From contig JALHMI010000019.1 of NCBI GenBank assembly GCA_022844125.1, forward strand, positions 40,359-104,358: DNA of 64,000 nt. Direction: 5' to 3'. The position numbers were made by a program, and so were the translations under genes. The stretch comes from Pirellulales bacterium. GTDB lineage: Bacteria; Planctomycetota; Planctomycetia; Pirellulales; PALSA-1355. Below, piece after piece: positions 25,163 to 38,225 of the stretch (its first letter is position 1; the number at the start of each line of letters is the position of its first letter). The notes beneath the pieces were generated by a model that was given only the letters and a program-made list of their open reading frames with translations, was not told the DNA's origin and searched no databases.

Positions 25163-27139
25163 CTACGGCTTGGGTTTCTCGGCAGCGGGCGTTCGGTCGA
25201 TCCAGGCGGCGAGCGCCACGGCAAGTTGCGGCACCGCGGCCGGATGTTCCGCCAGCATCGGGCTCGCTGAACGCAGACAACCTTGGGCCCGTTCGGCATA
25301 CTCAGGCTTGTTAAGTGCCTCGGCCAGATACAGCAAATTGGCGGCGGCGACCGAACTGCCGGCCGGCGTCACACCATCGAGCTGCATCTTGCTGCGGGCG
25401 AAAAGTTCTTCGTGACGGCTGGAAGTGTAGAAGAATCCGCCGGTCTGCTCGTCCGCAAAGAGTGTGACCTGCTGGTCCATGAGTTTGGCGGCAGCAGCGA
25501 GCCACTTCTGGTCGCCCGTCGCACGATGCAGCGCGATCAGCCCGTCGACGAGGAATGCGTAGTCGTCCAGGTAGCCGGGAATTTTGGCTTCGCCGCCGGC
25601 GTAGGTTCGCAAGAGCTGGCCATCGCCGTCTTGGAGCTTGGCGAGCACGAAGTCGGCGGCCTTGGCAGCGGCCTCGGTGTACTCGGGCCGCTTCAGCACG
25701 CGTCCGGCTTCGGCCAGTCCGGCGATCATCAAGCCATTCCAGCCGGTGAGAATCTTGGTGTCGGTCAACGGTCGCTCGCGCTTGTTCCGCATCTCGAGCA
25801 GTTTCTGGCGGATCGGCTTGAGCTTCGCGTTGAGGTCTTCTTCGGTGAGGTTTCGCGATTTGGCGATCTCAGCCAGGGGCGCCTTGAGCAGCGGAATGTA
25901 GCGGCCTTCGAAGTTCGGCTCGCCCTCAAGGCCGTAAACGCTGGCGAAGAGTTGGAACTCCTGAGGCGTTAGCGCTTGTTCGACTTCCTTGCGATCCCAG
26001 ACGTAAAAGTGCCCCTCCTTACCGTCGGTTTCGGCGTCGAGCGCCGAGTAGTACGCCCCGCCTTCGTCGCGCATTTCGCGATTTGCGAATTCGATGATCT
26101 CCTCCGCCGCGAACCGATACTCGTCGCGCGGGTCGAGTTCGTAGGCCAGCGCATAGACGCGCAGGAGCTGGCCATTGTCGTAGAGCATCTTCTCGAAATG
26201 CGGCACGCGCCAAAAGCGGTCGGTGCTGTAGCGATGGAACCCACCGCCAACGTGATCGCGAATGCCACCCTGAGCGACCTTGCTCAGCGTAAGTGACAGC
26301 ATCCGGGCCGAGGCATCGGCGCGCGGCTTGTCGACCTTGCCGTCGCGACCGCGGCGAATCGTTTCCAGCAGCAGCCGCAGATTCGGCGGCTCAGGAAACT
26401 TCGCCTGTCGGGGATTCTCCGGATTGAAACCGAATCCGCCATACTCGCTGTCGAACTGCGCGGCCAGCGCGTCGGTCGCGCCGCCGAACAACCGCTCATC
26501 GAGCTTCACGACGCGCAGGATCGGCTGCTGCCGGAGGCTTTCGTTCACATAGCCGGCCAGCGCGTCGCCCGTCTTCTGCCATTTGGCCGGATCGGCGTTC
26601 CAGGCTTCGAGCACCCGGTCAAGCACGGTGGAGAACCCAAGCATGCCGTCTTTGTCTTGCGGCGGAAAGTAAGTGCCGCCCATCAGGGGTTTGGCGTCGG
26701 GCGTGAGAAACATTGACAGGGGCCAACCGCCCCCCTGCTTCGAGCCAACGAGTTGCAGGTACGCGTGCAGGGCCTGCATATAGATTTCGTCGATGTCGGG
26801 CCGTTCCTCGCGATCGACCTTGATGCAGACGAAGTTTTCATTGAGTTTCTTCGCGATGTCGTCGTTCATGAACGACTCGCGCTCCATCACGTGGCACCAG
26901 TAGCAACTCGAATAGCCAATCGAGAGGAAGATCGGTTTCTTCTCGCGCTTGGCACGCTCGAGTGCTTCGGGTCCCCAGGGATACCAGTCGACCGGATTGT
27001 GCGCGTGCAACAGCAGATAGGGGCTGGTCTCTTTGGCCAGTCGATTCGTGTACGCCGGTTTGTCTTCAGCGGCGCCGTGCGAGATCAAACCAAAGATCGC
27101 GACCAGGAGAACGACTGCGAGGCGAATGGATCGAGTCAC
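25163..27139 (-). CDS. thioredoxin-domain protein of the DUF255/YyaL (SSP411-like) family
   Basis: 658 aa from GTG 27139 with a signal peptide. Hallmark N-terminal block [52 protein letters not shown], then a six-hairpin-glycosidase-like C-terminal part. Confidence 0.9.
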
Positions 27140-27168
27140 CGGTGCATCCCTTCGAGAGGTGAATGAAA

Positions 27169-27633
27169 CTAGTCGCGCGGCCCGGGCTGAACGCGTGAAC
27201 TGGGGCGCGGCGTGTGGCCGGCGTCGAAGCGGAGCGACTCACCCTTCGAGTCCCCGCTTGAGTCGTGGCCCGCCGATTCTATCGTCGGACCGGCGGGGGA
27301 CCAATCGCCGGCGGCACTCTCGCTGCTCGCCGCGGCCGGCGGCTGGTAATCGGCCAGCAGCGTGATGCAGCCCACCGTGAGCCGCTCGCCCGGTTCGAGC
27401 AGCACGGCCTCTTCAGCCAGGCGCAACTCGCCCACGAACGTGCCGTTCAGCGAACCGAGATCGCGGACCATCAGCCGGCCTTCGGCCTCGAAGATTTCGC
27501 AGTGCTGCCGGCTGACCAGCGGATGGAAGAGCGTAATGTCGGTGGTGCGGCTGCGGCCGACGATGGCAGGCAGATGCAGTTCGATCTGCCGCGTCTGCTC
27601 TTCGCCGCCGATGACTCTGAGTTTCGCTTGCAC
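27169..27633 (-). CDS. FHA-domain protein
   Basis: GTG 27633 with GGAG 6 nt upstream gives [12 protein letters not shown].... FHA signature [24 protein letters not shown]...[11 protein letters not shown]. Low-complexity Ser/Pro tail. The start is uncertain (GTG 27645 is also in frame). Confidence 0.75.
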
Positions 27634-27912
27634 GTGACGCTCCACTGACCGCGAGCGCTCGTGCGCTCGCCCAAACGGCAGTTGGCCCCGCGCGGCTCCC
27701 GCTCCCCTCACCTTGATCGCGCCCCGATTATAAGTTCGCGGCGGGTGAATCGCCAACGTGGAACGGACATGCGACTTGGGGGCTGAAACGAGCAGTATTC
27801 TCAGGTTCTGCGAGCCGGCCCGCGGCCGACTCGCCTGTTCGAGCCGCGGCAGGAGCCCTACAATGGCGCGCAGCGATGCCCGTTTCTCGATCGATTTCCC
27901 GCGGAATATCCC

Positions 27913-27957
27913 CTGTCTTCGGATAATTAACACACTCTGTCTTCGGATAATTAACAC
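27913..27957. repeat. two perfect 21-bp direct repeats (CTGTCTTCGGATAATTAACAC) with 24-bp period, abutting the hpt start
   Basis: Copies at 27913-27933 and 27937-27957, separated by ACT. AT-rich relative to the surroundings. End 1 nt before GTG 27959. Confidence 0.9.
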
Positions 27958-27958
27958 T

Positions 27959-28525
27959 GTGAAGCAGCTCTTGAGTGAAGCGCAACTGCGGGCCGGCGTG
28001 GCCCGGTTGGCTGCGGAGATTCGCCGCGACTATGCCGGCGGCTCGCTGACGATTCTGGGCGTGCTGACCGGCAGCCTGGTGGTCGTGGCCGATCTGATCC
28101 GCGAGCTCGACATGCCCATGCGGCTGGGCGTCATCCAGACGCGCAGTTACCGGGGCGCCGATACGCGGCCGGGTCAGCTCGAAATCAACTGCGCGATGTT
28201 GCCCGAGATTCGTGGGCGCGACGTGCTGCTGGTCGACGACATCTTCGACACCGGGCGGACGCTGTCCGCGCTGCTGGTTGAGATGCAAAAGCATGACCCG
28301 AACTCGATTCGTTCGGCGGTGCTGTTGCGCAAGGAGGGACGCCAGGAAGTCGAGATGCGGCCGGACTACATCGGCTTCACCATTCCGGATGCGTTCGTGG
28401 TGGGCTACGGACTCGACTATCAGGATGCTCACCGCAACCTGCCCTACCTCGCCGAGCTCGAAGATGAAGACTTGCAGGCCGCGGCCGAGCTGGCAGCCAC
28501 GGCACGCAGCGGGGCGGCGAAATGA
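27959..28525 (+). CDS. hpt: hypoxanthine(-guanine) phosphoribosyltransferase
   Basis: Collinear with E. coli Hpt from LLSEAQLRAGVARLAAEIRRDY. PRPP motif DVLLVDDIFDTGRTL and FVVGYGLDYQDAHRNLPY. GTG 27959 is the first start matching the family N-terminus. An upstream ATG at 27863 with AGGAG would add 32 aa running through the AT-rich repeats. Confidence 0.85.
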   Translation: MKQLLSEAQLRAGVARLAAEIRRDYAGGSLTILGVLTGSLVVVADLIRELDMPMRLGVIQTRSYRGADTRPGQLEINCAMLPEIRGRDVLLVDDIFDTGRTLSALLVEMQKHDPNSIRSAVLLRKEGRQEVEMRPDYIGFTIPDAFVVGYGLDYQDAHRNLPYLAELEDEDLQAAAELAATARSGAAK

Positions 28526-29622
28526 CGCGGCGCGTGTTGCACGTGATCTCCACGCTCACGCGCGGCGGAGCCGAGAAACAGCTTGCGCTGTTGGCCGCAC
28601 GCTTGCCCCGCGATGAGTTCGACGTGCACGTGTGCGCGATCTCGCGCGGCGGGCCGCTGGAAGAAGAGCTGCGCGCTGCGGGAATTCCCACCACGGTGAT
28701 CGGCAAGCAGTGGAAGTACGATCCCCTGGCGTGGTGGCAGCTCCGCCGGCACATTGCGCGGCTCAAGCCCGACCTGGTGCAAACCTGGATGTTTACGGCC
28801 AACGCTTATGGCCGCACCGCGGCGCGCTGGGCCGGGGTGAAGCATATCGTGGCCAGCGAGCGCTGCGTCGACTCCTGGAAAGGCGGGCTGCAACTGGCGA
28901 TCGATCGCAGACTCGCGCGGAAGACCGAGGCGATCATCGCCAACAGCCGCGGCGTGAAGGAGTTCTATGTCGCCAGTGGAGTCCCGGCCGAGAAGCTGGT
29001 CGTCATCGAAAACGGAATCCTGCCCGCTGCGCCGAGCGACATCACGCACGACCAGCTATGCGACGAGTTGGGCATCCCGCGCGGTGTACACCTGGTCGGC
29101 GCGGTCGGACGGTTGTGGCATCAGAAGCGGATCAAAGATTTGATCTGGGCGGCGGATCTCCTCAAAGTGATTCGCGCCGACGTGCACCTGCTGATCATTG
29201 GCGAGGGCCCGCTGCGGGAGAGTCTGGAAGAGTTTCGCGACGCCTGCCAGATTCAGGACAAGGTGCACTTTCTGGGAGTGCGGAACGATGTGATGCGGCT
29301 GATGCCGCATTTCGCCCTGCTCTGGCTGGCCAGCGACTACGAGGGGCTGCCAAACGTCGTGATGGAGGCAATGTCGGCCGGCGTGCCCGTCGTGGCCACC
29401 GACATTCCCGGCACGCGCGACCTGGTGATCCACGGCGAAACCGGGTTTCTCACTTCCGTTGGAGATCGGGCCAACCTGGCCCGATTTGCCCACAAGCTGC
29501 TGGAGGATCCGGCGATGCGAACCAGGTTCGGCGCGGCGGGGCGCGAGCGGGTGGAGATCGAGTTCAGCGTCCAGCGGATGGTCGCGGCTCACGCCGAGCT
29601 ATACCGACGGCTGCTGGGCTGA
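28522..29622 (+). CDS. glycosyltransferase family 4 (GT-B, RfaG-like)
   Basis: 366 aa. N-terminal VLHVISTLTRGGAEKQ. EX7E region SDYEGLPNVVMEAMSAGVPVVATD. ATG overlaps the hpt stop (ATGA). Confidence 0.85.
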   Translation: MTRRVLHVISTLTRGGAEKQLALLAARLPRDEFDVHVCAISRGGPLEEELRAAGIPTTVIGKQWKYDPLAWWQLRRHIARLKPDLVQTWMFTANAYGRTAARWAGVKHIVASERCVDSWKGGLQLAIDRRLARKTEAIIANSRGVKEFYVASGVPAEKLVVIENGILPAAPSDITHDQLCDELGIPRGVHLVGAVGRLWHQKRIKDLIWAADLLKVIRADVHLLIIGEGPLRESLEEFRDACQIQDKVHFLGVRNDVMRLMPHFALLWLASDYEGLPNVVMEAMSAGVPVVATDIPGTRDLVIHGETGFLTSVGDRANLARFAHKLLEDPAMRTRFGAAGRERVEIEFSVQRMVAAHAELYRRLLG

Positions 29623-29693
29623 GATAATTGGTGGCGTACACTTCAGAGAGTCTCGAAGTGCCTATCCGCCCCCTCGTCATTTCAAGAGCAGCC

Positions 29694-31652
29694 ATGTGCG
29701 GCATTGCCGGCGCCATCTGGACCAACCCCGCGGTGGAAGTCTCCGCCGACGTGCTGGCGCGGATGACCGAGGTGCTCACGCATCGCGGCCCGGATGATTT
29801 CGGCGCATACACCAGCGCGCTGAAGACGCAAGCCGTGGCGGGAACGTCGCCCGGCGTCGCGCTCGGGCATCGGCGGTTGTCGATCATCGACGTCGCCGGC
29901 GGGCATCAGCCCATGTCGAACGAAGACGGTTCGGTATGGATCGTCTTCAATGGCGAGATCTACAACCACCGCGACTTGCGCCGCCGGCTGGAAGGCGCGG
30001 GACATCAGTTCCGCACGCATTCGGATACCGAAGCGATCGTCCATTTGTACGAGGACGAGGGGCTCGACTTTCTCCAACACCTGGACGGGATGTTCGCCCT
30101 GGCAATCTGGGACGCGCGCCGCCGCAGGCTGGTGATCGCCCGCGACCGGCTGGGAAAGAAGCCGCTGTACTACCGGGCGGAGTCCGACCGCCTGCTGCTG
30201 GCCAGCGAACTCAAGAGCCTGCTCGAAGTGCCGGGAATCCAGCGCAGCATGGATCCCCGCGCGCTAGATGAGTACTTCACGCTGCAATATGTGCCCCATC
30301 CGCGCACGATCCTGCGGGGGTTCAACAAGCTGGCGCCCGCTCACTACGGCGTGTTTCAGGACGGAACGTTTCGCACGGAGCGGTACTGGCAGCCGGACTT
30401 CAACCTGGAGGTGGAACGCCCTCTGGCCGATGCGGCAGCCGAACTGCGCGAGCTTCTGACCAGGTCTGTCCAGGCTCGGCTCGAAGCCGACGTACCACTG
30501 GGCGCGTTTCTATCCGGCGGCGTCGACTCGTCGCTGATCGTCGGGCTGATGCAGCAATTGAGTCGCGAACGGGTGAAGACCTTTTCGATCGGCTTTCCGA
30601 TCGCCTCGTACGATGAGTCGCAATACGCGCGCCAGGTGGCCGAGCGACTAGGAACCGATCACCACGAGTTTCGTGTCCAGCCGCGCGCAGTCGAGGTGCT
30701 GGAAAAGCTGGTCTGGCACTACGACGAGCCGTTTGCCGACAGCTCGGCGATTCCGACCTACTACGTTTCCAAATTGACGCGCGAGTTCGTCACGGTGGCA
30801 CTCACGGGCGATGGCGGCGACGAACTGTTCGCGGGCTACGACCGCTATCAGGCCGTGCGGCTGGCGTCGTACCTGGATCATCTGCCGAGGGCGGTGAAGT
30901 CGCTACTTGCGCGACCGGGAAACGCCGGCTGGGGGCAAGATCGCCCGCAGCGGTCGCTGCTCAGGCGTTTGGGTCGCTTCAGCGAGGCCTTGAACTTCGG
31001 CCCCCAGCGACGATACCTGGAATGGGTCTCGATGTTCAACGAAGCCCGCCGGGCCGAACTCTACAGCGATGAGCTCATCGAGCAGCTTCCAGATCACGAT
31101 CCGTTTGAGTTTCTCTCGGATGCCTTCGGCGAGGTGAATCGCCGCGATCCGGTCACAGCGGCCAGCCTGGTGGACCTGGTCACTTACTTGCCGTGCGATC
31201 TGATGACGAAAGTGGACATCGCGTCGATGGCCAATAGCCTGGAGTGCCGGGCCCCGATGCTCGATCACCGGCTGGTGGAGTTCGCGGCCGCGCTGCCGCT
31301 GCGCTATAAGCTGCATCGTGGGCGCGGAAAGCGGATTCTGAAGCTGGCATTTCCGGAGCTATTGCCGGATAGCGTGACGCGCCGTCCGAAAATGGGTTTC
31401 GGCGTGCCGCTTGCACAGTGGTTTCGCGGCGAACTGCGCCAGTACGCTCACGATGTGCTGCTCGACGAGCGAGCTCGCGCGCGCGGGTATTTTCGCCAGG
31501 GCGCAGTCGAGCGCCTGCTGACCGAGCACAACACGGGCGCTTTCGACCACGGCTATCGCCTGTGGGGCCTCTTGGTCTTCGAGCTGTGGCATCGCTGTTG
31601 GCTCGACGGGCATAATCGTGCCAAGCTGGCCGAAACCATCAGCGCCGGATAA
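29694..31652 (+). CDS. asnB: asparagine synthase (glutamine-hydrolysing) family amidotransferase
   Basis: Ntn start MCGIAG (Cys2 nucleophile) fixes the start at 29694. HRGPD and HRRLSIID. PP-loop FLSGGVDSS. C-terminal ...PKMGFGVP. Confidence 0.9.
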   Translation: MCGIAGAIWTNPAVEVSADVLARMTEVLTHRGPDDFGAYTSALKTQAVAGTSPGVALGHRRLSIIDVAGGHQPMSNEDGSVWIVFNGEIYNHRDLRRRLEGAGHQFRTHSDTEAIVHLYEDEGLDFLQHLDGMFALAIWDARRRRLVIARDRLGKKPLYYRAESDRLLLASELKSLLEVPGIQRSMDPRALDEYFTLQYVPHPRTILRGFNKLAPAHYGVFQDGTFRTERYWQPDFNLEVERPLADAAAELRELLTRSVQARLEADVPLGAFLSGGVDSSLIVGLMQQLSRERVKTFSIGFPIASYDESQYARQVAERLGTDHHEFRVQPRAVEVLEKLVWHYDEPFADSSAIPTYYVSKLTREFVTVALTGDGGDELFAGYDRYQAVRLASYLDHLPRAVKSLLARPGNAGWGQDRPQRSLLRRLGRFSEALNFGPQRRYLEWVSMFNEARRAELYSDELIEQLPDHDPFEFLSDAFGEVNRRDPVTAASLVDLVTYLPCDLMTKVDIASMANSLECRAPMLDHRLVEFAAALPLRYKLHRGRGKRILKLAFPELLPDSVTRRPKMGFGVPLAQWFRGELRQYAHDVLLDERARARGYFRQGAVERLLTEHNTGAFDHGYRLWGLLVFELWHRCWLDGHNRAKLAETISAG

Positions 31653-31848
31653 TCCGCACGGCGTGCTTCCCCCCGCCGCAGTGCTACAAGCCGAACTGGT
31701 CAAGCGGCACTCCAGACGCGCGACATTGCAGGCGCTGAATAATCCCATCGGGCACTACAGGCCTTTAGCCAACCTTGCCGAATGGATAAGATGCAACGAC
31801 CGGCATTTGCAGGCCTTTAAACGGCAGCACCCCTGCGGAGAGAGCGGC

Positions 31849-33108
31849 ATGAAGAGCAACGTCCTGGCGGTGGTCCTGGCGGGAGGCAAAGGAGAACGAC
31901 TCGAACCCCTCACGCGCGATCGGGCCAAGCCGGCGGTGCCGTTTGGCGGAGGCTACCGGATCATCGACTTCACGCTGTCGAACTGCATCAACAGCGGGAT
32001 TCGCAAGATCCTGGTGCTCACGCAGTACAAAGCGATGAGCCTCGACAGGCATATCAATCTCGGCTGGCAGCGACTCTTGTGCCGCGAGCTGGGCGAATGG
32101 ATCGACGTCGTGCCACCGCAGCAGCGCATCGACGAGCACTGGTACCAGGGCACCGCGGACGCCGTTTATCAGAACATCTATGCGCTGGAAAAAGAGCGGC
32201 CCGAGTACGTCCTGATTCTGGCCGGCGACCATATCTACAAGATGGATTACGGCCGGCTAGTCGACTATCACATTGAGAATAACGCCGATCTGACAGTGGG
32301 CGCGCTGCGGGCTCCGGCCAGCGAATCGCGGCATTTCGGCACACTCCAGATCGACGAGAACGAGCGGATCATCGGCTTTCAGGAGAAACCGCTCGAACCG
32401 GCCACGATTCCCGGCGACCCGGACCATATCTTCGCCTCGATGGGCATTTACGTCTTCACGGCACGGTTCCTGTTCGAGCAGTTGTGCCTGGACGCGACCA
32501 AGCCCGGCAGCCGGCATGACTTCGGACACAACATCATTCCGGCCGTGATCGACACGCACCGCGTGTTTGCCTTCCCGTTCCGCGACGAGAATCGTAAGCA
32601 GGACTCGTATTGGCGAGACGTCGGCACGCTGGACGCGTACTTCGAAGCAAACATGGACCTGGTGTCCGTCGACCCGCAACTGAACATGTACGACGAGCAC
32701 TGGCCCATCCGCACCTACCTGCCGAACTACCCGCCGCCGAAGTCGGTGTTCGCGGAGGAGGGCCCGAACGCCCGCCGCGGCCAGGCGCTCGACAGCATCG
32801 TCTGCCAGGGCTCGATCATCTCCGGCGGCACGGTCGAGCGGTCGATCCTGGGAACCAATACCCGGATCAATAGTTTCGCGCACGTGCAGGATTCAATCCT
32901 GTTGGACCACGTGGACATCGGCCGGCATGCGCGTGTGCGGCGGGCGATCATCGACAAGCACGTGCGGATCCCGCCTGGCACCGAGATCGGTTTCGATCAC
33001 GAGCAGGATCGAGCGCGGGGGTTCATGGTGAGCGAAGGGGGCGTGGTCGTGATTGCCAAGGCGGACGGCGTGGACCACTTCAGCGAACCGGCCCTGCTTT
33101 ATCGCTGA
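31849..33108 (+). CDS. glgC: glucose-1-phosphate adenylyltransferase
   Basis: Start ATG 31849. VVLAGGKGERLEPLTRDRAKPAVPFGGGYRIIDFTLSNCINSGI, WYQGTADAV, ILAGDHIYKMDY and YWRDVGTLDAYFEANMDL are all classic GlgC blocks. Confidence 0.92.
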   Translation: MKSNVLAVVLAGGKGERLEPLTRDRAKPAVPFGGGYRIIDFTLSNCINSGIRKILVLTQYKAMSLDRHINLGWQRLLCRELGEWIDVVPPQQRIDEHWYQGTADAVYQNIYALEKERPEYVLILAGDHIYKMDYGRLVDYHIENNADLTVGALRAPASESRHFGTLQIDENERIIGFQEKPLEPATIPGDPDHIFASMGIYVFTARFLFEQLCLDATKPGSRHDFGHNIIPAVIDTHRVFAFPFRDENRKQDSYWRDVGTLDAYFEANMDLVSVDPQLNMYDEHWPIRTYLPNYPPPKSVFAEEGPNARRGQALDSIVCQGSIISGGTVERSILGTNTRINSFAHVQDSILLDHVDIGRHARVRRAIIDKHVRIPPGTEIGFDHEQDRARGFMVSEGGVVVIAKADGVDHFSEPALLYR

Positions 33109-33213
33109 TCGCCGGCTCTCGGATGGATTGATCGGCGGGAAACCGAAATGGTCGCTTCGCGTCCACGGTGCTGATCGTATCGGTGCCCGCACTCGCGGGG
33201 CCCCTTGCCCGAG

Positions 33214-33222
33214 TGCTAGAAT
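33214..33222 (+). promoter_or_regulatory. possible extended -10 promoter (TGcTAGAAT) of the ethylene-binding-domain kinase gene
   Basis: TG at 33214-33215 and TAGAAT at 33217-33222. No convincing -35. About 95 nt upstream of ATG 33317. Confidence 0.25.
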
Positions 33223-33316
33223 CGGCCCATCCCGGGTGGTCGCTCGCAGACCATAAGCAGCGTCACAACCTGGGGAAGTGCCGAGTCAATCTTTCCCGGT
33301 TTGGAGCGCCCCCGCT

Positions 33317-36154
33317 ATGTTCCGCGAAATCGGCGGATTCTTTACGCACTTGTTCGATGTCGAGGGTTTTCCGCCGCGCTGGTATTGCGGCAACTGGAGC
33401 GAAGGCCACGGCTGGCTGCACATTATCTCGGACCTCGGCGTCTGGACCGCTTACCTGGCGATTCCACTGGTGCTGTGGTACTTCGTGCTGCGCCGCCGCA
33501 CGCTGCCATTCCGGTTCATGTTCGTGCTGTTCGGAGCGTTCATCATTTTCTGCGGCACGACGCATCTGATGGAAGCGATCATCTTCTGGTGGCCGGCCTA
33601 TCGGCTGGCCGGCCTGATAAAGCTGGCCACCGCCGTCATTAGTTGGGCGACCGTGATCGCGCTGGTGCCGCTCTCCCCGAAGGTCCTCGGCATGCGCACG
33701 CCCGAGGAACTGGAGGCGATCGTTGAGGAGCGAACCGCTCAGCTCAACCGCGAAATCGAGGAACGCAAGCGGACCGAACGCGAACTGGCCCGGCAGCGTG
33801 AACTGCTGGAAGTCACGCTTTCCAGTATCGGCGATGCCGTGATCGCCACCGATACCGAGAAGCAGATCACGTTCATGAACCCGATCGCCGAGAAGCTGAC
33901 GGGCATGACCAACGCCGAGGCTAAGGGGCAGCCGCTCGACGGGGTGTTCCGGATCGTCAATGAGAACACACGGCAGCCAGTGGAGACTCCCTGCGACGCG
34001 GTGCTGCGCGAAGGGGTGATCGTGGGGCTGGCGAACCACACGGTGCTGATTGCGACGGATGGCCGCGAAACGCCGATCGACGATAGCGCGGCGCCAATTC
34101 GAGACAGCGAGGGAAGCGTGTTCGGCGTGGTGCTCGTGTTTCGCGACGCCACCGAGCAGCGCCGATACGTCGAAGCCCAGGAGCGGTTGGCCGCAATCGT
34201 CGAGAACTCGCAGGACGCGATCATCAGTCAGGACCTGGAGGGGAAAATCCTGAGCTGGAACCAGGGAGCTCAGAGGCTGTTCGGTTTCACCCCGGAGGAG
34301 GCGGTGGGGCGGTCAATCGAGATCGTCGTTCCGCCGGACATGCGCAGCGGGTACCAGCAGTCGATGCAGGCCCTGCGGCGCGGCGAGCCGGTGCAGTACA
34401 TCGACACCTTCCGAATACACAAGGACGGCACGCGGCTGGAAGTGTCCAGCCGGATCTCGCCGATCCGCGGGGGCGAGGGCCAGGTGATCGGCGCTTCAAA
34501 GATCTCGCACGACATCTCGGCCCAGAAACGCAACGAACGCGTCCTCAGGCTCTTCTCCGACGCGGGCACCGTGCTGTCCGTCCTCTCGGAAGAAGGCAGC
34601 ATGCTCGAGCGCCTGGCGCGGTTGACCGTGCCGCTGTTTGCCGACTGGTGCGTGGTCAGTATGATCGATCCCCACGGAAAGGTTAAAACCGTGGGCCGGG
34701 CGCACGGCGACGCGTCCAAGCAAGGCGTGCTGGACGAGTACCTCGCCAAGTACCCTCTGGATTGGAATGTTTCGTCGATCACCATGAATGTCCTGCGCTC
34801 GGGGCAGCCGGAGTTGATCAGCGACATGCCCGCGGCGGTGCTCGACGCATTGGCGACGGACGAGCAACACCGTGAGCTGTTGGGCAAGCTCTCGCCACGG
34901 TCGGTGTTGGTGGTGCCGATCGCGATTCGCGGCAAGACGGTGGGAGCGATCTCGTTTGCCTTGAACCATTCGTTCCGCCGCTACTCGGTGGATGACGTAT
35001 CCGTGGCAACCGAACTTGCGCGCCGGGCGGCCACGGCAATCGAAAACGCCCGGCTGTATCAAGAGCTACAGGAAGCGCAGCGGCAAAAAGATGACTTCCT
35101 GGCGATGCTGGCGCACGAGCTGCGCAATCCACTGGCGGCGATTCAGTACGCCAACCAGATCGCACAGCTTTCGCAGGCGCCCAGCGAAGAAGCCCACGAG
35201 ACGATTGATCGGCAAGTCAAGAGCCTCGCCCATCTGATCGACGATCTGCTGGACGTCTCGCGGATCACGCGAGACAAAATCCACCTCAAGAAAGAACACA
35301 TCGATGGCGCGATGCTCGCGCGGCGGGCGGCCGCGAGCATTCATCCCGTGATTGAGGGTCGCAAGCACGAACTCGAGGTGGATATTCCTCCGCAGCCACT
35401 GCCACTCCTGGTCGATCCGACCCGGCTCGAGCAGATTCTCGTGAACCTGCTGAGCAATGCAGCCAAGTACACACCCGAAGGAGGCAAGATCGCGCTGCGA
35501 TGTTTTGCCGAGGGGAATCAGGCGGTGTTTCAGGTCGAGGACAACGGCATCGGTATGCCCACCGAAGCGCTGCCGCGCGTGTTCGAACTGTTCACGCAGG
35601 TCGACCGCTCGCTCGACCGTTCGCAAGGCGGCCTGGGCATTGGCCTGACGGTCGTGCGCAAGCTGGCAGAAATGCACGGCGGGAGCGTGTCCGCCGACAG
35701 CCGGGGCTTGGGGCAAGGCAGCGTGTTCACCGTGCGATTGCCGCTCAGTGACGCGCCGCTCGACGCCGGCGCGCCGCAAGCCAAGCCACCACTAATGACC
35801 CAGCCTCGCCGCATTCTCGTGGTGGACGACAACGTCGATACGGCGAACAGCGTCGCCACGCTGCTTAAGCTGGCGGGACATGAAGTCTCGCTGGCACACG
35901 ACGGCCTGGCGGCGATCGACGCGGCCAAGCATTCGCACCCGGAGATCGTGCTGCTCGACATCGGTCTGCCAGGACTCGATGGCTATGCGGTCGCGCGCAC
36001 CTTGCGCGATCATCCCGAGTTGGCAAACGCGAAGCTGATTGCGGTGTCAGGTTACGGTCAGCCGGAAGATCGCCGCCGCGCACACGAGGCCGGCTTTGAC
36101 GAGCACCTGGTGAAGCCAGTGGCCTTCGACAAGCTGCTGTCGCTGATCAATTGA
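33317..36154 (+). CDS. hybrid sensor histidine kinase/response regulator with N-terminal ethylene-binding-domain-like membrane module, 2 PAS, GAF, HisKA, HATPase, REC
   Basis: Start ATG 33317 (MFREIGG). The N-terminal three helices match the ETR1 ethylene-binding domain (see findings). PAS blocks SIGDAVIATDTEKQITFMNP and SQDAIISQDLEGKILSWNQGA. H-box LAMLAHELRNPL. G-boxes DNGIGMP and GGLGIGLTVV. Receiver ILVVDDN...LLDIGLPGLDG...KLIAVSGYG...KP. Confidence 0.9.
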   Translation: MFREIGGFFTHLFDVEGFPPRWYCGNWSEGHGWLHIISDLGVWTAYLAIPLVLWYFVLRRRTLPFRFMFVLFGAFIIFCGTTHLMEAIIFWWPAYRLAGLIKLATAVISWATVIALVPLSPKVLGMRTPEELEAIVEERTAQLNREIEERKRTERELARQRELLEVTLSSIGDAVIATDTEKQITFMNPIAEKLTGMTNAEAKGQPLDGVFRIVNENTRQPVETPCDAVLREGVIVGLANHTVLIATDGRETPIDDSAAPIRDSEGSVFGVVLVFRDATEQRRYVEAQERLAAIVENSQDAIISQDLEGKILSWNQGAQRLFGFTPEEAVGRSIEIVVPPDMRSGYQQSMQALRRGEPVQYIDTFRIHKDGTRLEVSSRISPIRGGEGQVIGASKISHDISAQKRNERVLRLFSDAGTVLSVLSEEGSMLERLARLTVPLFADWCVVSMIDPHGKVKTVGRAHGDASKQGVLDEYLAKYPLDWNVSSITMNVLRSGQPELISDMPAAVLDALATDEQHRELLGKLSPRSVLVVPIAIRGKTVGAISFALNHSFRRYSVDDVSVATELARRAATAIENARLYQELQEAQRQKDDFLAMLAHELRNPLAAIQYANQIAQLSQAPSEEAHETIDRQVKSLAHLIDDLLDVSRITRDKIHLKKEHIDGAMLARRAAASIHPVIEGRKHELEVDIPPQPLPLLVDPTRLEQILVNLLSNAAKYTPEGGKIALRCFAEGNQAVFQVEDNGIGMPTEALPRVFELFTQVDRSLDRSQGGLGIGLTVVRKLAEMHGGSVSADSRGLGQGSVFTVRLPLSDAPLDAGAPQAKPPLMTQPRRILVVDDNVDTANSVATLLKLAGHEVSLAHDGLAAIDAAKHSHPEIVLLDIGLPGLDGYAVARTLRDHPELANAKLIAVSGYGQPEDRRRAHEAGFDEHLVKPVAFDKLLSLIN

Positions 36155-36173
36155 GCTCGTGAGGACGCAGCGC

Positions 36174-36236
36174 AAAAAAAGGCCCCCGGAAAGGCTGTGT
36201 CCCAGGGGGGCAGAGGACACAAACCTTTTCCGGGAG
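36174..36236 (-). terminator. intrinsic terminator (minus-strand polarity; may also stop the + strand kinase transcript)
   Basis: Outer stem CCCGGAAAGG / CCTTTTCCGGG and inner stem GTGTCC / GGACAC. The A7 run at 36174-36180 on the plus strand is a U7 tail on the minus strand. Lies 20 nt past the kinase stop. Confidence 0.6.
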
Positions 36237-36481
36237 CGATTGGACGCTCAGCAAGCCGCTGTTTCAGAAAACAGCTACTTGCGACGCACGCAGTTGTACG
36301 CGAAGCGTACTGCCCGCATCCTTGCTGGCAGATTCCGCTTCGTGGTCCGCAGCAACGCCGCGTTTTGGACACGCTTCGCTGCCGGTGCAGACCCATCCAA
36401 TTGGCCTGGAGTGTCTTGCTCGCAATCGGCGGCAATGTGTGGCGGATCGCTGGTCCGCTCGACTGATTGCCCCCGACGTGA
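36174..36481 (-). ncRNA. candidate novel ~300-nt non-coding RNA (orphan promoter-to-terminator unit)
   Basis: Minus-strand TTGACC-N17-TATTCT promoter (36516-36488), no credible ORF, internal hairpins (e.g. 36258-36275 GCTGTTT-CAGA-AAACAGC), and a compound terminator hairpin 36181-36236 followed on the minus strand by 7 U (36174-36180). Not matched by eye to any RNA family I know. Confidence 0.3.
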
Positions 36482-36487
36482 GGCGGG

Positions 36488-36516
36488 AGAATAGGAGAAT
36501 CGCCACCAGGGGTCAA
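36488..36516 (-). promoter_or_regulatory. sigma-70-like promoter TTGACC-N17-TATTCT, preceded by phased A-tract decamers
   Basis: Plus-strand GGTCAA at 36511-36516 and AGAATA at 36488-36493, with a 17-nt spacer. Upstream on the minus strand are GGAAATTGGCC GGAAAACCGC GGAAAACCGC (36517-36550) at about one helical turn spacing. Confidence 0.45.
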
Positions 36517-36570
36517 GGGCGGTTTTCCGCGGTTTTCCGGCCAATTTCCGCACTCTTCGCACAGCTCGCG

Positions 36571-36611
36571 AAATAAAAAAAGCGGCCCGAGAAAACTTTC
36601 TCTCGGGCCGC
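36571..36611 (-). terminator. intrinsic terminator of the MORN-repeat gene
   Basis: GCGGCCCGAGAAA / TTTCTCGGGCCGC stem (36582-36611), followed on the minus strand by TTTTTTTATTT (36571-36581). Lies 36 nt past the stop at 36647. Confidence 0.75.
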
Positions 36612-36646
36612 TTGAATGGATTCTCGAACCGCATGCGCCCGCTAAT

Positions 36647-38038
36647 TTAGCGAACCGCGGGACGCTGCGATTGGTTGCCACGCGGGGCCGGAGCCGGGCG
36701 ACGGGCGGTGTTGGCCGGCGTCTTGCTCGGAGCGGGCGCGGCCGGAACCGCCAGCGGCTCAAGCTGACGCGGCGTTTCGATCACCACGCCTTCGGAGTGC
36801 GAGAGATCCGCGGACTGCACCACGCGACCATCTTCGTGCCACCAGGTCCAGCGGCCGGTCGGATTGCCATGGGCATATTCGCCTTCGATTGACTTCTGAC
36901 CATTGGCGTGCCACCAGGTCCAATCGCCATCCTGCTTGCCGCGATCAAAGGTGCCTTCAAGGGCCCGCTGACCGTTCGAGTGCCACCAGGTGAATTTGCC
37001 CACCTGCAGGTCGTGTTCGTAGGCGCCTTGCAGTTGCATCTGACCGCTGGGGAACCAACTCGTCCAGGGACCGTGCTTTTCATCCTTACCACTCTTCACC
37101 GTGGTCAGGAGCTTGCAGGTCCACCAATCGTCGGGCGTGTGCTCGACGTCCTTGGCGAACAGATACACGCCTTCGGACTTCTTGGCTTTGCCGTCCTTGT
37201 AGTACGCGGTCTTGGAGGCGATCTTACGGCCTTCTTCGTACTGTTCCTTCACTCGGACCGTGCCGTCCGGAGCCCATTCAAAGTAGTCACCCTGCATGTC
37301 GCCGTGGACGAAAGTCGCTTCGCGCATCTTCTTGTCGTTGGTGAACCACCAGGTCGAAGTGCCGTTGCGCTTGCCCTTTTCGAAAGACCACTGGCTGATC
37401 TTGCGGGTCTTGCCGTCGTAGATCGTCCACAGGCCGTCGAGCAGATCGTTCTTGAACTCGGCCTGCGAGATGAACGGTCCGGGGAACAGCGAGTAGGGCG
37501 CCTTCGAGAGAATGTTGGCTTCCTGCACGCTGCGATACCAGCGAATCCAGACGCCCGTGCGATTGCCGTACTCGTACTGACCCTGGACTTGCAAGTTGCC
37601 TCGCTCGTCCCACATCTTCCACGATCCATGGTTGACGTAGTTGCCGGCGGCGTCCTGGGTGGTTTCGCGTTCGATGCGAATCGAACCGTTCGGGAATCGC
37701 TCCTTGATCAACTCGACGCCGTCTTCGGCCGGAGCGTCGTCCTCGCTCGACAGCGCTTCGTCCGCATCTTTCGTCTCGTCCATCGCGACGGGTTTATCCT
37801 CAGCCGGCTGATCCAGCGGCTGGGCAACTTCGTCGCCCGCGGTGTACGGATAAGAATCGGCGGTCGACTCTTCTTCGTCGGCAGGTAGCTCGACAACGTA
37901 ATCGGCGGCCTGGGGCTCGTGGGCTGCCTGCACGACCGGCTGGCTGGGCTTGCGGCCGTCAGCGGCTTGCGTGGGCATTGCCGAGACCAGCGCCATTCCC
38001 AGCGTCAGCGGCGTGATCCAGTTCGTGGCGCGTAACAT
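36647..38038 (-). CDS. secreted MORN-repeat (YwqK-like) protein
   Basis: ATG 38038 with AAGGAG 6 nt upstream. Signal peptide MLRATNWITPLTLGMALVSAMPTQA. Acidic linker, then repeated G-x-W-x-x-W-x-x-NGQ...G-x-Y units (e.g. DGDWTWWHANGQKSIEGEYAHGNPTGRWTWWHEDG). Confidence 0.8.
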   Translation of the reverse strand: MLRATNWITPLTLGMALVSAMPTQAADGRKPSQPVVQAAHEPQAADYVVELPADEEESTADSYPYTAGDEVAQPLDQPAEDKPVAMDETKDADEALSSEDDAPAEDGVELIKERFPNGSIRIERETTQDAAGNYVNHGSWKMWDERGNLQVQGQYEYGNRTGVWIRWYRSVQEANILSKAPYSLFPGPFISQAEFKNDLLDGLWTIYDGKTRKISQWSFEKGKRNGTSTWWFTNDKKMREATFVHGDMQGDYFEWAPDGTVRVKEQYEEGRKIASKTAYYKDGKAKKSEGVYLFAKDVEHTPDDWWTCKLLTTVKSGKDEKHGPWTSWFPSGQMQLQGAYEHDLQVGKFTWWHSNGQRALEGTFDRGKQDGDWTWWHANGQKSIEGEYAHGNPTGRWTWWHEDGRVVQSADLSHSEGVVIETPRQLEPLAVPAAPAPSKTPANTARRPAPAPRGNQSQRPAVR

Positions 38039-38225
38039 TCCGCACTCCTTTGCTAGCATGAATATCTAGCACCGTCCCTGTCTTGGTGCTAAACGGTCCT
38101 TGCCGGAAGTATCGGCAAAACCGCCCCGGCCGCTTGTGGGGATTTCGCGGAGAGAGCGCAATAATTGGTCGTCTGACAACCAGCGTTCCAACCAGCAACC
38201 GAAATCGGGGCGCGACGGACACACG

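Follow-up and report, generated by a model that had tools for sequence, protein, structure and literature searches.

Within the window, the 64,000-nt stretch of DNA that was analysed, a spacer of 492 bp separates two convergent genes: an ethylene-domain kinase ORF on the plus strand, which stops at 36154, and a Pfam-confirmed MORN_2 gene on the minus strand, which stops at 36647. An earlier note on this DNA had described about 490 bp lacking a credible ORF, with five elements ordered along the minus strand, and all five are found where it placed them. The first is the intrinsic terminator of the MORN_2 gene (36570–36613, minus strand; stem 36613–36580), with a 4-nt loop and the T-rich tail TTTTTATTT. 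The terminator itself was called correctly, but its stem has 15 pairs in our scan and not the 13 bp given before. It lies outside the RNA described here and sets the upstream boundary of the unit.

Downstream of this terminator, three phased A-tracts (GGAAAT, GGAAAA and GGAAAA; 36519–36549, minus strand) precede the –35 hexamer as a curved, UP-element-like region. They correspond to the three phased decamers of the earlier note, which read GGAAATTGGCC/GGAAAACCGC/GGAAAACCGC at ~36549–36519. In 56 homologues, A content has maxima at –8, –19/–20, –30/–31 and –42 from the –35 hexamer, which gives a period of ~11 bp. The –35 hexamer TTGACC (36511–36516, minus strand) hardly varies among homologues from either order. 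The –10 hexamer TATTCT (36488–36493, minus strand) lies 17 bp from it; Pirellulales retain this sequence, and Planctomycetaceae have TATGTT or TATnnT in its place. It is followed, ahead of the predicted start, by the G+C-rich discriminator CCCGCC (36482–36487, minus strand), which is conserved in both orders. The scan recovers the TTGACC-N17-TATTCT promoter at 36516–36488, as previously proposed, and it is the sole promoter-like site in 1.8 kb (0.2 expected).

The geometry of promoter and terminator predicts a transcript of ~305 nt (36174–36481, minus strand), which would start at ~36481–36479 and end within the U-run. Consensus scans by themselves are not significant, with three terminator-like sites seen against 1.9 expected. 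The arrangement is nevertheless more than chance, because the promoter, the core and the terminator are kept in dozens of genomes and the MFE z-score is –6.3. The two hexamers, 17 bp apart, are conserved together with the RNA, and an intrinsic terminator is present, as in a sigma-70 unit. The promoter and terminator accompany the RNA even where its neighbours are different genes, and synteny is lost outside the family. As judged from these sequence features, the minus strand carries at 36174–36481 a stand-alone gene equipped with its own sigma-70-type promoter and intrinsic terminator. The proposal of an independent noncoding transcript of ~300 nt thus gains support from conservation, from compensatory changes and from a promoter and terminator that travel with the RNA.

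Fold and conserved elements of the RNA

The predicted transcript folds with an MFE of –148.7 kcal/mol (z = –6.27), and both the MFE and the consensus folds give a row of independent hairpins: a 5´ hairpin, H1, P2, P3/P3b, variable hairpins and the terminator. All elements are on the minus strand. The 5´ domain (36407–36477) comprises a long irregular hairpin, which starts a few nucleotides past the predicted start and is kept despite its variable sequence, followed by an A/C-rich linker. H1 (36395–36406) is a small conserved element, (A/G)UCCA-NN-UGGAU, that forms a weak local hairpin with two supported pairs only. Its UGGAU could alternatively pair with GUCCA at 36241–36245, and sequence variants support conflicting sides of the choice between this long-range pairing and the local hairpin.

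The core is built from P2 and P3. P2 (36344–36393) consists of an invariant helix, GGUCUGCA/UGCGGACC, a 3-nt bulge and a hairpin whose sequence is lineage-specific while its pairing is constant; helix 3, which belongs to P2, shows compensatory changes at 5 of 6 pairs. P3 (36301–36342; CGAAGCG/CGCUUCG) closes around the hairpin P3b (36310–36331), and helices 4 and 5 of P3/P3b carry compensatory changes at 7 of 12 pairs. P2 and P3 fold alike in every homologue though sequences differ; in the P2 outer helix and P3, the sequence itself is invariant, beyond what pairing requires. In the core as a whole, 13 of 28 pairs are compensatory, a result matched by none of 500 shuffles, and 94.6% of the core cells are paired compared with at most 46% in slid controls.

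The region that follows (36251–36300) forms variable hairpins whose length (26–140 nt in homologues) and sequence are not conserved. It contains the hairpin AGCUGUUU-UCUG-AAACAGC (36258–36276), the local hairpin of the earlier note, which we find as AGCUGUUUUCUGAAACAGC at 36276–36258. Directly 5´ of the terminator lies the invariant segment GUCCAAUCG (36237–36245), which is predicted to be single-stranded; CCAAUCGC is nearly invariant across 54 sequences. The long terminator hairpin of ~20 bp (36183–36236) and the U7 tail at the predicted 3´ end (36174–36180) coincide with the second compound hairpin and U7 reported before (36236–36183 and 36180–36174). The terminator stem covaries, with compensatory changes at 10 of 20 pairs and a covariation score reached by none of 500 shuffles, and the T-run is kept in homologues. 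The apical loop of this hairpin is C-rich and 12 nt long (UCUGCCCCCCUG; 36203–36214), and it is kept without change as GCCCCCCU in all 54 aligned sequences, which come from two orders. A conserved, unpaired C-rich motif, as in C-rich-loop sRNAs, is flanked here by a covarying stem.

Distribution and absence from known RNA families

The RNA gene is present in a single copy in its genome, and homologues of the spacer are found in 38 of 41 relatives; sequence and fold are both conserved, the latter backed by compensatory base changes. The phylum-scale distribution was determined by DNA searches with the 3´ module. Of the 401 genomes from the class Planctomycetia, 117 contain it: ~85 of ~100 Pirellulales (about 85% of those sampled), plus ~30 Planctomycetaceae. 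It is found in none of ~280 genomes from other classes of the phylum. The named carriers include Bythopirellula, Lacipirellulaceae, Thermoguttaceae, Pirellulaceae, Planctomicrobium, Fuerstiella and Schlesneria, and the family occurs in a cultured strain, Bythopirellula polymerisocia Pla144. The RNA is ~300–400 nt long in Pirellulales, with shorter forms of 110–270 nt in some Planctomycetaceae. In the Planctomycetaceae versions, the core is lost or cannot be recognised, so that the 3´ hairpin is all that defines the family. A phylum-wide covariance search with the core, in which scoring was limited to 12 of the thousands of initial candidates in each genome, matched the RNA's own genome alone and is given no weight here.

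At the gathering threshold, Rfam 15 gives no match in the 64-kb window, and the E-value mode returns sub-threshold chance matches only (13–20 bits). Across 20 homologous loci, drawn from the two orders, the single Rfam match is an unrelated tRNA. RNase P RNA, SRP RNA and tmRNA are excluded as identities because those genes lie elsewhere in the genome, and the exclusion of these RNAs and of 6S, made by eye in the earlier note, holds, since the genes themselves or the versions in relatives are at other loci. No description of the RNA was found in the literature on planctomycete sRNAs, 6S RNA and structured-RNA surveys, and no matching regulatory RNA family is described for planctomycetes in Rfam or the accessible literature. 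The structured RNA family founded on this locus has no entry in Rfam and no mention in the searchable literature, and the locus is very probably a real ncRNA gene. Its RNA is the first to be described of a family that is conserved in the class Planctomycetia and near-universal in Pirellulales, where it is as well conserved as housekeeping RNAs. Gene regulation in planctomycetes is poorly understood, and this RNA probably regulates gene expression after transcription.

A possible link to CsrA and competing explanations

The P3b loop CAAGGAUG (36317–36324, minus strand) fits the CsrA/RsmE consensus C-ANGGAN-G, in which an A(N)GGA element is presented as a hexaloop at the tip of a hairpin. The GGA of this loop is invariant in 30 of 30 sequences. 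Of 57 homologues, 50 have the motif CANGGANG, on stems that covary, and the other seven lack the strict motif; in 12 homologues, second copies occur at non-homologous positions. The short Planctomycetaceae forms show GGA-loop hairpins, and some are without any. In total, 62 motifs are found in 17.4 kb of homologues compared with ~5.5 predicted from the background of 0.095 per 300 nt. The CsrA-type motif is not enriched across the genome (3068 observed, 4068 expected), and the seven GGA triplets in 308 nt are near the base-composition estimate of ~5.

The genome encodes 13 csrA paralogues that are detected by tblastn and retain the MLVLSR...HR.E motifs. CsrA is prevalent in Planctomycetota, with up to 15 paralogues in some surveyed genomes (PMC13443453). 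The csrA leaders were used as the yardstick for the local CsrA motif, as no flagellin gene was detectable in the genome. In four of the 13 csrA genes, CANGGAGG overlies the gene's own ribosome-binding site, compared with 2.2% of the other Shine-Dalgarno-bearing ORFs, which suggests that the canonical motif is read in this organism. Since no flagellin was detected, there is no gene through which a FliW-flagellin circuit could work. Likewise, Hfq was not detectable in the genome, and an Hfq route is therefore not evident. Linkage of csrA to the locus is about that expected by chance (two matches in ~1 Mb of context).

In several respects, the RNA resembles CsrB/CsrC and RsmX/Y/Z, the RNAs that sequester CsrA/RsmA in Gammaproteobacteria. 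It, too, is a stand-alone unit that runs from a promoter of its own to a Rho-independent terminator, it presents the optimal C-ANGGAN-G in a hairpin loop, the number of its GGA hairpins varies by lineage (1–3), and its host has many CsrA paralogues. In contrast to these RNAs, which lack both features, it contains a large core that is conserved as well as the invariant C-rich loop, it belongs to a different phylum, and it shares neither sequence nor covariance-model similarity with them. It bears one or two strict sites per molecule, where known CsrA sponges bear many more, and CsrA binding is here predicted from sequence. A further point against a CsrA reading is that conservation is highest in the C-rich loop, which is no CsrA motif.

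This loop is the focus of an unlikely alternative, in which the RNA acts by base pairing, like RNAIII or RsaE/RoxS of Staphylococcus aureus, and the loop, perhaps with the upstream CGCUCCC, serves as a seed on G-rich ribosome-binding sites. RNAIII (in its 3´ domain) and RsaE/RoxS are similarly long, structured RNAs with conserved C-rich loops, including that of the terminator, which could pair with Shine-Dalgarno regions in the manner of the C-rich-loop RNAs that act without Hfq in Gram-positive bacteria. The planctomycete RNA is not homologous to them and encodes no peptide, and its loop is longer and invariant across the class. The invariance of the loop, its anti-Shine-Dalgarno-like CCUCU or CCUCC, the failure to detect Hfq and the retention of the loop in short Planctomycetaceae forms even without the GGA hairpin all favour pairing. 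However, no target mRNA emerged from inspection of the glgC leaders: the RNA's CGCUCCC is complementary to the glgC ribosome-binding site GGGAGCG as it is to any Shine-Dalgarno sequence, and this complementarity is generic. Pairing also leaves unexplained the conserved P2/P3 core and the GGA loop on covarying stems across Pirellulales; the GGA hairpin would be structural, or an internal partner of the loop's UCCU. In another reading, which we regard as quite unlikely, the RNA is the component or scaffold of a novel ribonucleoprotein or has a biochemical function of its own. Its conserved helices and loops would then be protein or tertiary contacts and not regulatory seeds. The length in Pirellulales, the sequence-invariant P2 outer helix and P3, and conservation across a whole class would fit such a role. 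So would the promoter, as phased A-tracts with a G+C-rich discriminator are typical of highly expressed stable RNA genes such as those for rRNA and tRNA in E. coli, which it resembles. The raiA motif/ModT, OLE and ROOL RNAs, large ncRNAs that are widespread in bacteria and whose functions are not settled, are comparable in being structured, covariation-backed, conserved over large clades and, as predicted here, independently transcribed, with functions that cannot be read from their neighbours; they differ in sequence, fold and clade, and their Rfam models give no match. Against this explanation, the core is lost or unrecognisable in Planctomycetaceae, which leaves the 3´ hairpin alone to define the family, and no protein gene is steadily linked, with neighbours that vary apart from glgC (17% of loci).

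The recurrence of glgC bears on a further, very improbable explanation, that the element acts in cis, either as a long 3´ UTR or a terminator region belonging to the MORN gene or as an antisense or convergent device on the gene that runs into it. The gene running into the RNA is glgC in many relatives and the ethylene-domain kinase here. In 28 of 163 loci (17%), a convergent glgC ends shortly past the terminator of the RNA, and at least one of these loci carries a Planctomycetaceae-type 3´ module. The convergent gene stops 20–220 nt beyond the RNA terminator, and the other strand of the hairpin has no U-run, so that read-through from glgC or the kinase into RNA antisense is possible. However, the MORN gene ends in a strong terminator of its own before the RNA promoter is reached, and that promoter is itself conserved as such; glgC is not nearby in 83% of loci and the neighbours differ between families. 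The recurring convergent glgC hints at a link to carbon storage, or it could be retained ancestral synteny. A very divergent 6S RNA, or a functional replacement that binds RNA polymerase like the actinobacterial Ms1, was considered because Pirellulales are reported to lack 6S RNA. This is improbable in the extreme. Ms1 is similar to the RNA in size, and the RNA shares with 6S RNA (RF00013) and Ms1 a conserved stand-alone gene of stable-RNA type with a promoter that looks growth-regulated. RF00013 has no match in the genome even at E ≤ 1, and BLAST and nhmmer searches with the 6S-like RNAs of relatives found no 6S there. PMC5673643, citing Wehner et al. 2014, likewise reports no 6S RNA for Pirellula staleyi, Rhodopirellula baltica and Thermogutta terrifontis. 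Against this, 6S-like matches are present in 20 of 38 Pirellulales, four of them above the Rfam cut-off, at loci other than that of the RNA, and these non-overlapping loci include five genomes of the same family; canonical 6S and the RNA coexist in Planctomycetaceae genomes. The fold is a string of hairpins and not a rod in which a closing stem and a terminal stem flank a large central bubble. Identity with 6S is largely refuted by the separate 6S-like loci in relatives. The probability of a small protein gene, or of a dual-function RNA with a translated small ORF, is close to nil. Mechanical ORFs of 80–119 aa do traverse the spacer on both strands, but none has a Pfam match, they pass through the terminator hairpins, and the substitutions in stems are compensatory. 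The spacing of the conserved blocks takes all three values modulo 3, even among close relatives, and no reading frame is shared among homologues. The out-of-frame spacing and the lack of Pfam matches identify the RNA as noncoding.

Our best guess, tentatively held, is that the RNA is a trans-acting regulator linked to CsrA; that its mechanism in fact runs through CsrA is somewhat short of an even chance, as predicted from the motifs. The RNA would work in trans, post-transcriptionally and independently of Hfq, with its conserved exposed elements as the working parts. Among the 13 CsrA paralogues, at least one would most likely be bound by the P3b C-[ANGGAN]-G hexaloop, and the RNA would either titrate such proteins or be under their control. 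The anti-Shine-Dalgarno-like C-rich loop of the terminator hairpin, CCUCUGCCCCCCUG, would contact a G-rich partner, most likely the ribosome-binding region of an mRNA. A fuller version, which we consider doubtful, is that this is the first Csr/Rsm-type CsrA partner RNA outside Proteobacteria, an antagonist or hub for the expanded paralogues that is coupled to glycogen through glgC and bears a base-pairing loop in addition. If true, an elaborate RNA would serve the CsrA set of non-flagellated, Hfq-less planctomycetes across the class, and the anti-Shine-Dalgarno-like loop would provide a second mode of action within one molecule. The RNA is a concrete candidate for controlling the CsrA paralogues, of which such genomes have up to ~15, and the genome studied here has neither flagellin nor Hfq that could be detected.

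Architecture and coding potential of the spacer

A spacer of 492 bp separates a hybrid histidine kinase with an ethylene-binding domain (33278–36154, plus strand) from a convergent MORN_2-repeat gene assigned by Pfam (36647–38059, minus strand). Read on the minus strand, it contains the terminator of the MORN gene (stem 36613–36580, then a T-rich tail), three A-tracts spaced by ~10–11 bp (~36549–36519), the promoter TTGACC-N17-TATTCT (36516–36488), a hairpin-rich stretch of ~250 nt with local hairpins, and a long compound hairpin (36236–36183) followed by U7 at 36180–36174. All the elements that an earlier note had named, from which it proposed an ncRNA of ~300 nt, are present in that order. 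The MORN terminator is the textbook hairpin described there, although the terminator scan gives a stem of 15 pairs rather than 13. In the promoter scan, TTGACC-N17-TATTCT is the sole promoter-like site in 1.8 kb, where 0.2 are expected.

ORFs of 80–119 aa span the spacer, as expected of G+C-rich DNA, and a Pfam search of these ORFs returned zero matches. The distances between conserved blocks in the homologues vary by non-multiples of three, even in close relatives, and therefore no reading frame is conserved, in agreement with the absence of a credible ORF noted earlier. The predicted 308-nt transcript has a minimum free energy of -148.7 kcal/mol (z = -6.27 versus dinucleotide shuffles), and the homologues, compared module by module, form the same hairpins despite differing sequences. 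In the core, the central P2/P3 part of the RNA, RNAalifold predicts 28 pairs from 30 sequences, 13 of which show compensatory double changes; 94.6% of the core cells are paired, compared with at most 46% when the partners are slid by 1–3 columns, and none of 500 shuffles attains the observed covariation. The terminator hairpin carries compensatory changes in 10 of its 20 pairs (54 sequences, two orders). Judged from these comparisons, the predicted product of the spacer is a structured RNA rather than a protein, and we are highly confident that the ncRNA gene is genuine.

Conservation, distribution and known RNA families

The RNA gene is single-copy in its own genome. A DNA search recovers the spacer in 38 of 41 related genomes, which bears out its expected conservation in relatives. 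The conserved parts are the promoter region, the central core and the last 80 nt, the last of which are the most conserved (81–96% identity between families). An alignment of 35 homologues reveals near-invariant blocks in the promoter (CGCCC-TTGACC-N17-TATTCT-CCCGCC), the core (AUCCAyGUGGAUGGGUCUGCA ... CUGCGGACCACGAAGCG ... GCAnGGAUGC ... CGCUUCG) and the 3´ end (GUCCAAUCGCUCCCGG ... GUCCUyUGCCCCCCUGGGAC ... CCGGGGGCC-U7-8). Across 56 homologues, the A content 5´ of the -35 hexamer has maxima at -8, -19/-20, -30/-31 and -42, and the phased A-tracts are therefore a conserved promoter feature. Outside the window's family the neighbouring genes differ, yet the RNA keeps its own promoter and terminator.

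Among 401 genomes of the class, 117 carry the 85-nt 3´ module, which includes the terminator hairpin: ~85 of ~100 Pirellulales, which span at least 15 families, and ~30 genomes of one further family, identified as Planctomycetaceae by a pattern scan of named genomes. The genomes matching the pattern include Lacipirellulaceae, Bythopirellula polymerisocia Pla144, Thermoguttaceae, Pirellulaceae, Planctomicrobium, Fuerstiella, Schlesneria and others. In Planctomycetaceae the RNA is shorter, measuring 110–270 nt, and retains the promoter (TTGACs-N17-TATGTT-CCCGCC) together with the 3´ hairpin, but not the Pirellulales core. None of ~280 genomes from the other classes of the phylum has the module, the lone match being spurious (21 nt). 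Two contigs labelled as Candidatus Kuenenia (anammox) MAGs (L116 and L155) carry a Planctomycetia-type 3´ module, one of them with an adjoining glgC; because the sampled genomes of other classes lack the module, these contigs may be mis-binned.

Rfam 15 at gathering score yields no family in the window or, for the RNA, in 20 homologous loci, and the E-value mode returns only noise. RNase P, SRP and tmRNA, to none of which the earlier note could match the spacer by eye, sit at other loci of the genome. 6S RNA (RF00013) has no match in this genome and is present in 250 of 401 genomes of the class, including Planctomycetaceae that also bear the RNA; weaker 6S-like matches occur in 20 of 38 Pirellulales, at loci other than that of the RNA. 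It follows that the RNA is not 6S and does not stand in for it. The literature reports 6S RNA to be absent from P. staleyi, R. baltica and T. terrifontis (PMC5673643). The 6S-like RNAs of the Pirellulales, an order reported in the literature to be without 6S, are divergent (~200–220 nt, 27–48 bits on RF00013), for example G004:C1:901111-901319, G011:C1:4467460-4467669, G040:C22:8174-8390 and G373:C41:6026-6234 (L094–L097); the window's own genus yielded none.

Predicted exposed loops, CsrA and glgC

The predicted fold leaves two conserved elements exposed. One is the 12-nt loop that caps the terminator hairpin, UCUGCCCCCCUG, in which GCCCCCCU is invariant in 54 of 54 aligned sequences; directly 5´ of its G stands CCUCU or CCUCC, which resembles an anti-Shine-Dalgarno sequence. 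The second is the loop (36317–36324) of P3b, a hairpin inside P3 (36310–36331), which reads C-A-N-G-G-A-N-G; its stem covaries (GGCA/UGCC versus GACA/UGUC) and GGA is invariant. The optimum for CsrA/RsmE, known from CsrA SELEX and the RsmE-hcnA structure, is (A/U)CANGGANG(U/A), an ANGGAN hexaloop with a closing C-G pair. The predicted P3b loop matches this optimum and is a candidate CsrA site. The CsrA-type motif is found in 50 of 57 homologues, 12 homologues have a second one at non-homologous positions, and it is also seen in loops of short Planctomycetaceae forms; altogether 62 motifs occur in 17.4 kb of homologues, compared with ~5.5 from the background rate.

The genome encodes 13 csrA paralogues (C3:342837, C3:199056, C7:12673, C7:27300, C9:97342, C18:102914, C12:164659, C17:131887, C10:262398, C6:192349, C15:192578, C16:132384 and C4:55442). 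CANGGAGG overlies the ribosome-binding site of 4 of the 13, compared with 2.2% of the remaining ORFs whose start bears a Shine-Dalgarno sequence, which suggests csrA autoregulation through the canonical motif. By tblastn, neither flagellin nor Hfq is detectable in this genome; a FliW-flagellin partner-switch would thus have no detectable flagellin gene to work on, and there is no sign of Hfq-dependent sRNAs. According to a survey from 2026, CsrA is prevalent in Planctomycetota, with up to 15 paralogues in some surveyed genomes (PMC13443453).

In 28 of 163 loci glgC converges on the RNA and ends shortly past its terminator; at least one of these has a Planctomycetaceae-type 3´ module. glgC is a classic CsrA target in E. 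coli. In the window, the glgC start was found by tblastn within 27001–37000, and the kinase separates glgC from the RNA. Because most same-family genomes have glgC in direct convergence with the RNA gene (comparison of L004–L015), the kinase in the window's genus was apparently inserted later, into a pre-existing glgC/RNA pair. Many Pirellulales, including the window (within 27001–37000) and L006, L008, L011, L012, L015, L048, L104, L108 and L166, also have a conserved promoter-like motif, CTTTAGC-N17-(G/C)TAAGATGCA, which precedes the glgC start by ~50–60 nt; the ribosome-binding site GGGAGCGGC often comes after it.

Possible functions of the RNA

Several points speak against a classical CsrA sponge: strict sites number only one or two, GGA triplets as a whole are no more than ordinary in number, the motif is missing from seven homologues and shows no genome-wide enrichment, csrA and the RNA locus are unlinked, and the C-rich loop rather than the GGA hairpin defines the family. 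These points therefore lead to a combined reading, which we favour tentatively: the RNA would act in trans and independently of Hfq as a regulator, both binding CsrA and making use of its C-rich loop. A purely base-pairing RNA, for which the anti-Shine-Dalgarno-like loop would be the natural candidate and which would leave the P3b motif aside, is unlikely, and a part in a novel RNP, or a scaffold RNA, is slightly more doubtful still. Cis or antisense action on the convergent gene would suit the glgC loci, set beside the differing neighbours elsewhere, and is improbable. A 6S/Ms1-like RNA is very improbable given the separate 6S loci, and a coding gene, despite the spanning ORFs, is scarcely credible.

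No description of the RNA was found in Rfam 15 or in the papers searched. It is a new family of stand-alone structured bacterial ncRNA with unusually deep conservation, and the predicted combination of a CsrA-type hairpin and an invariant anti-Shine-Dalgarno-like loop in one RNA would be an unusual pairing.
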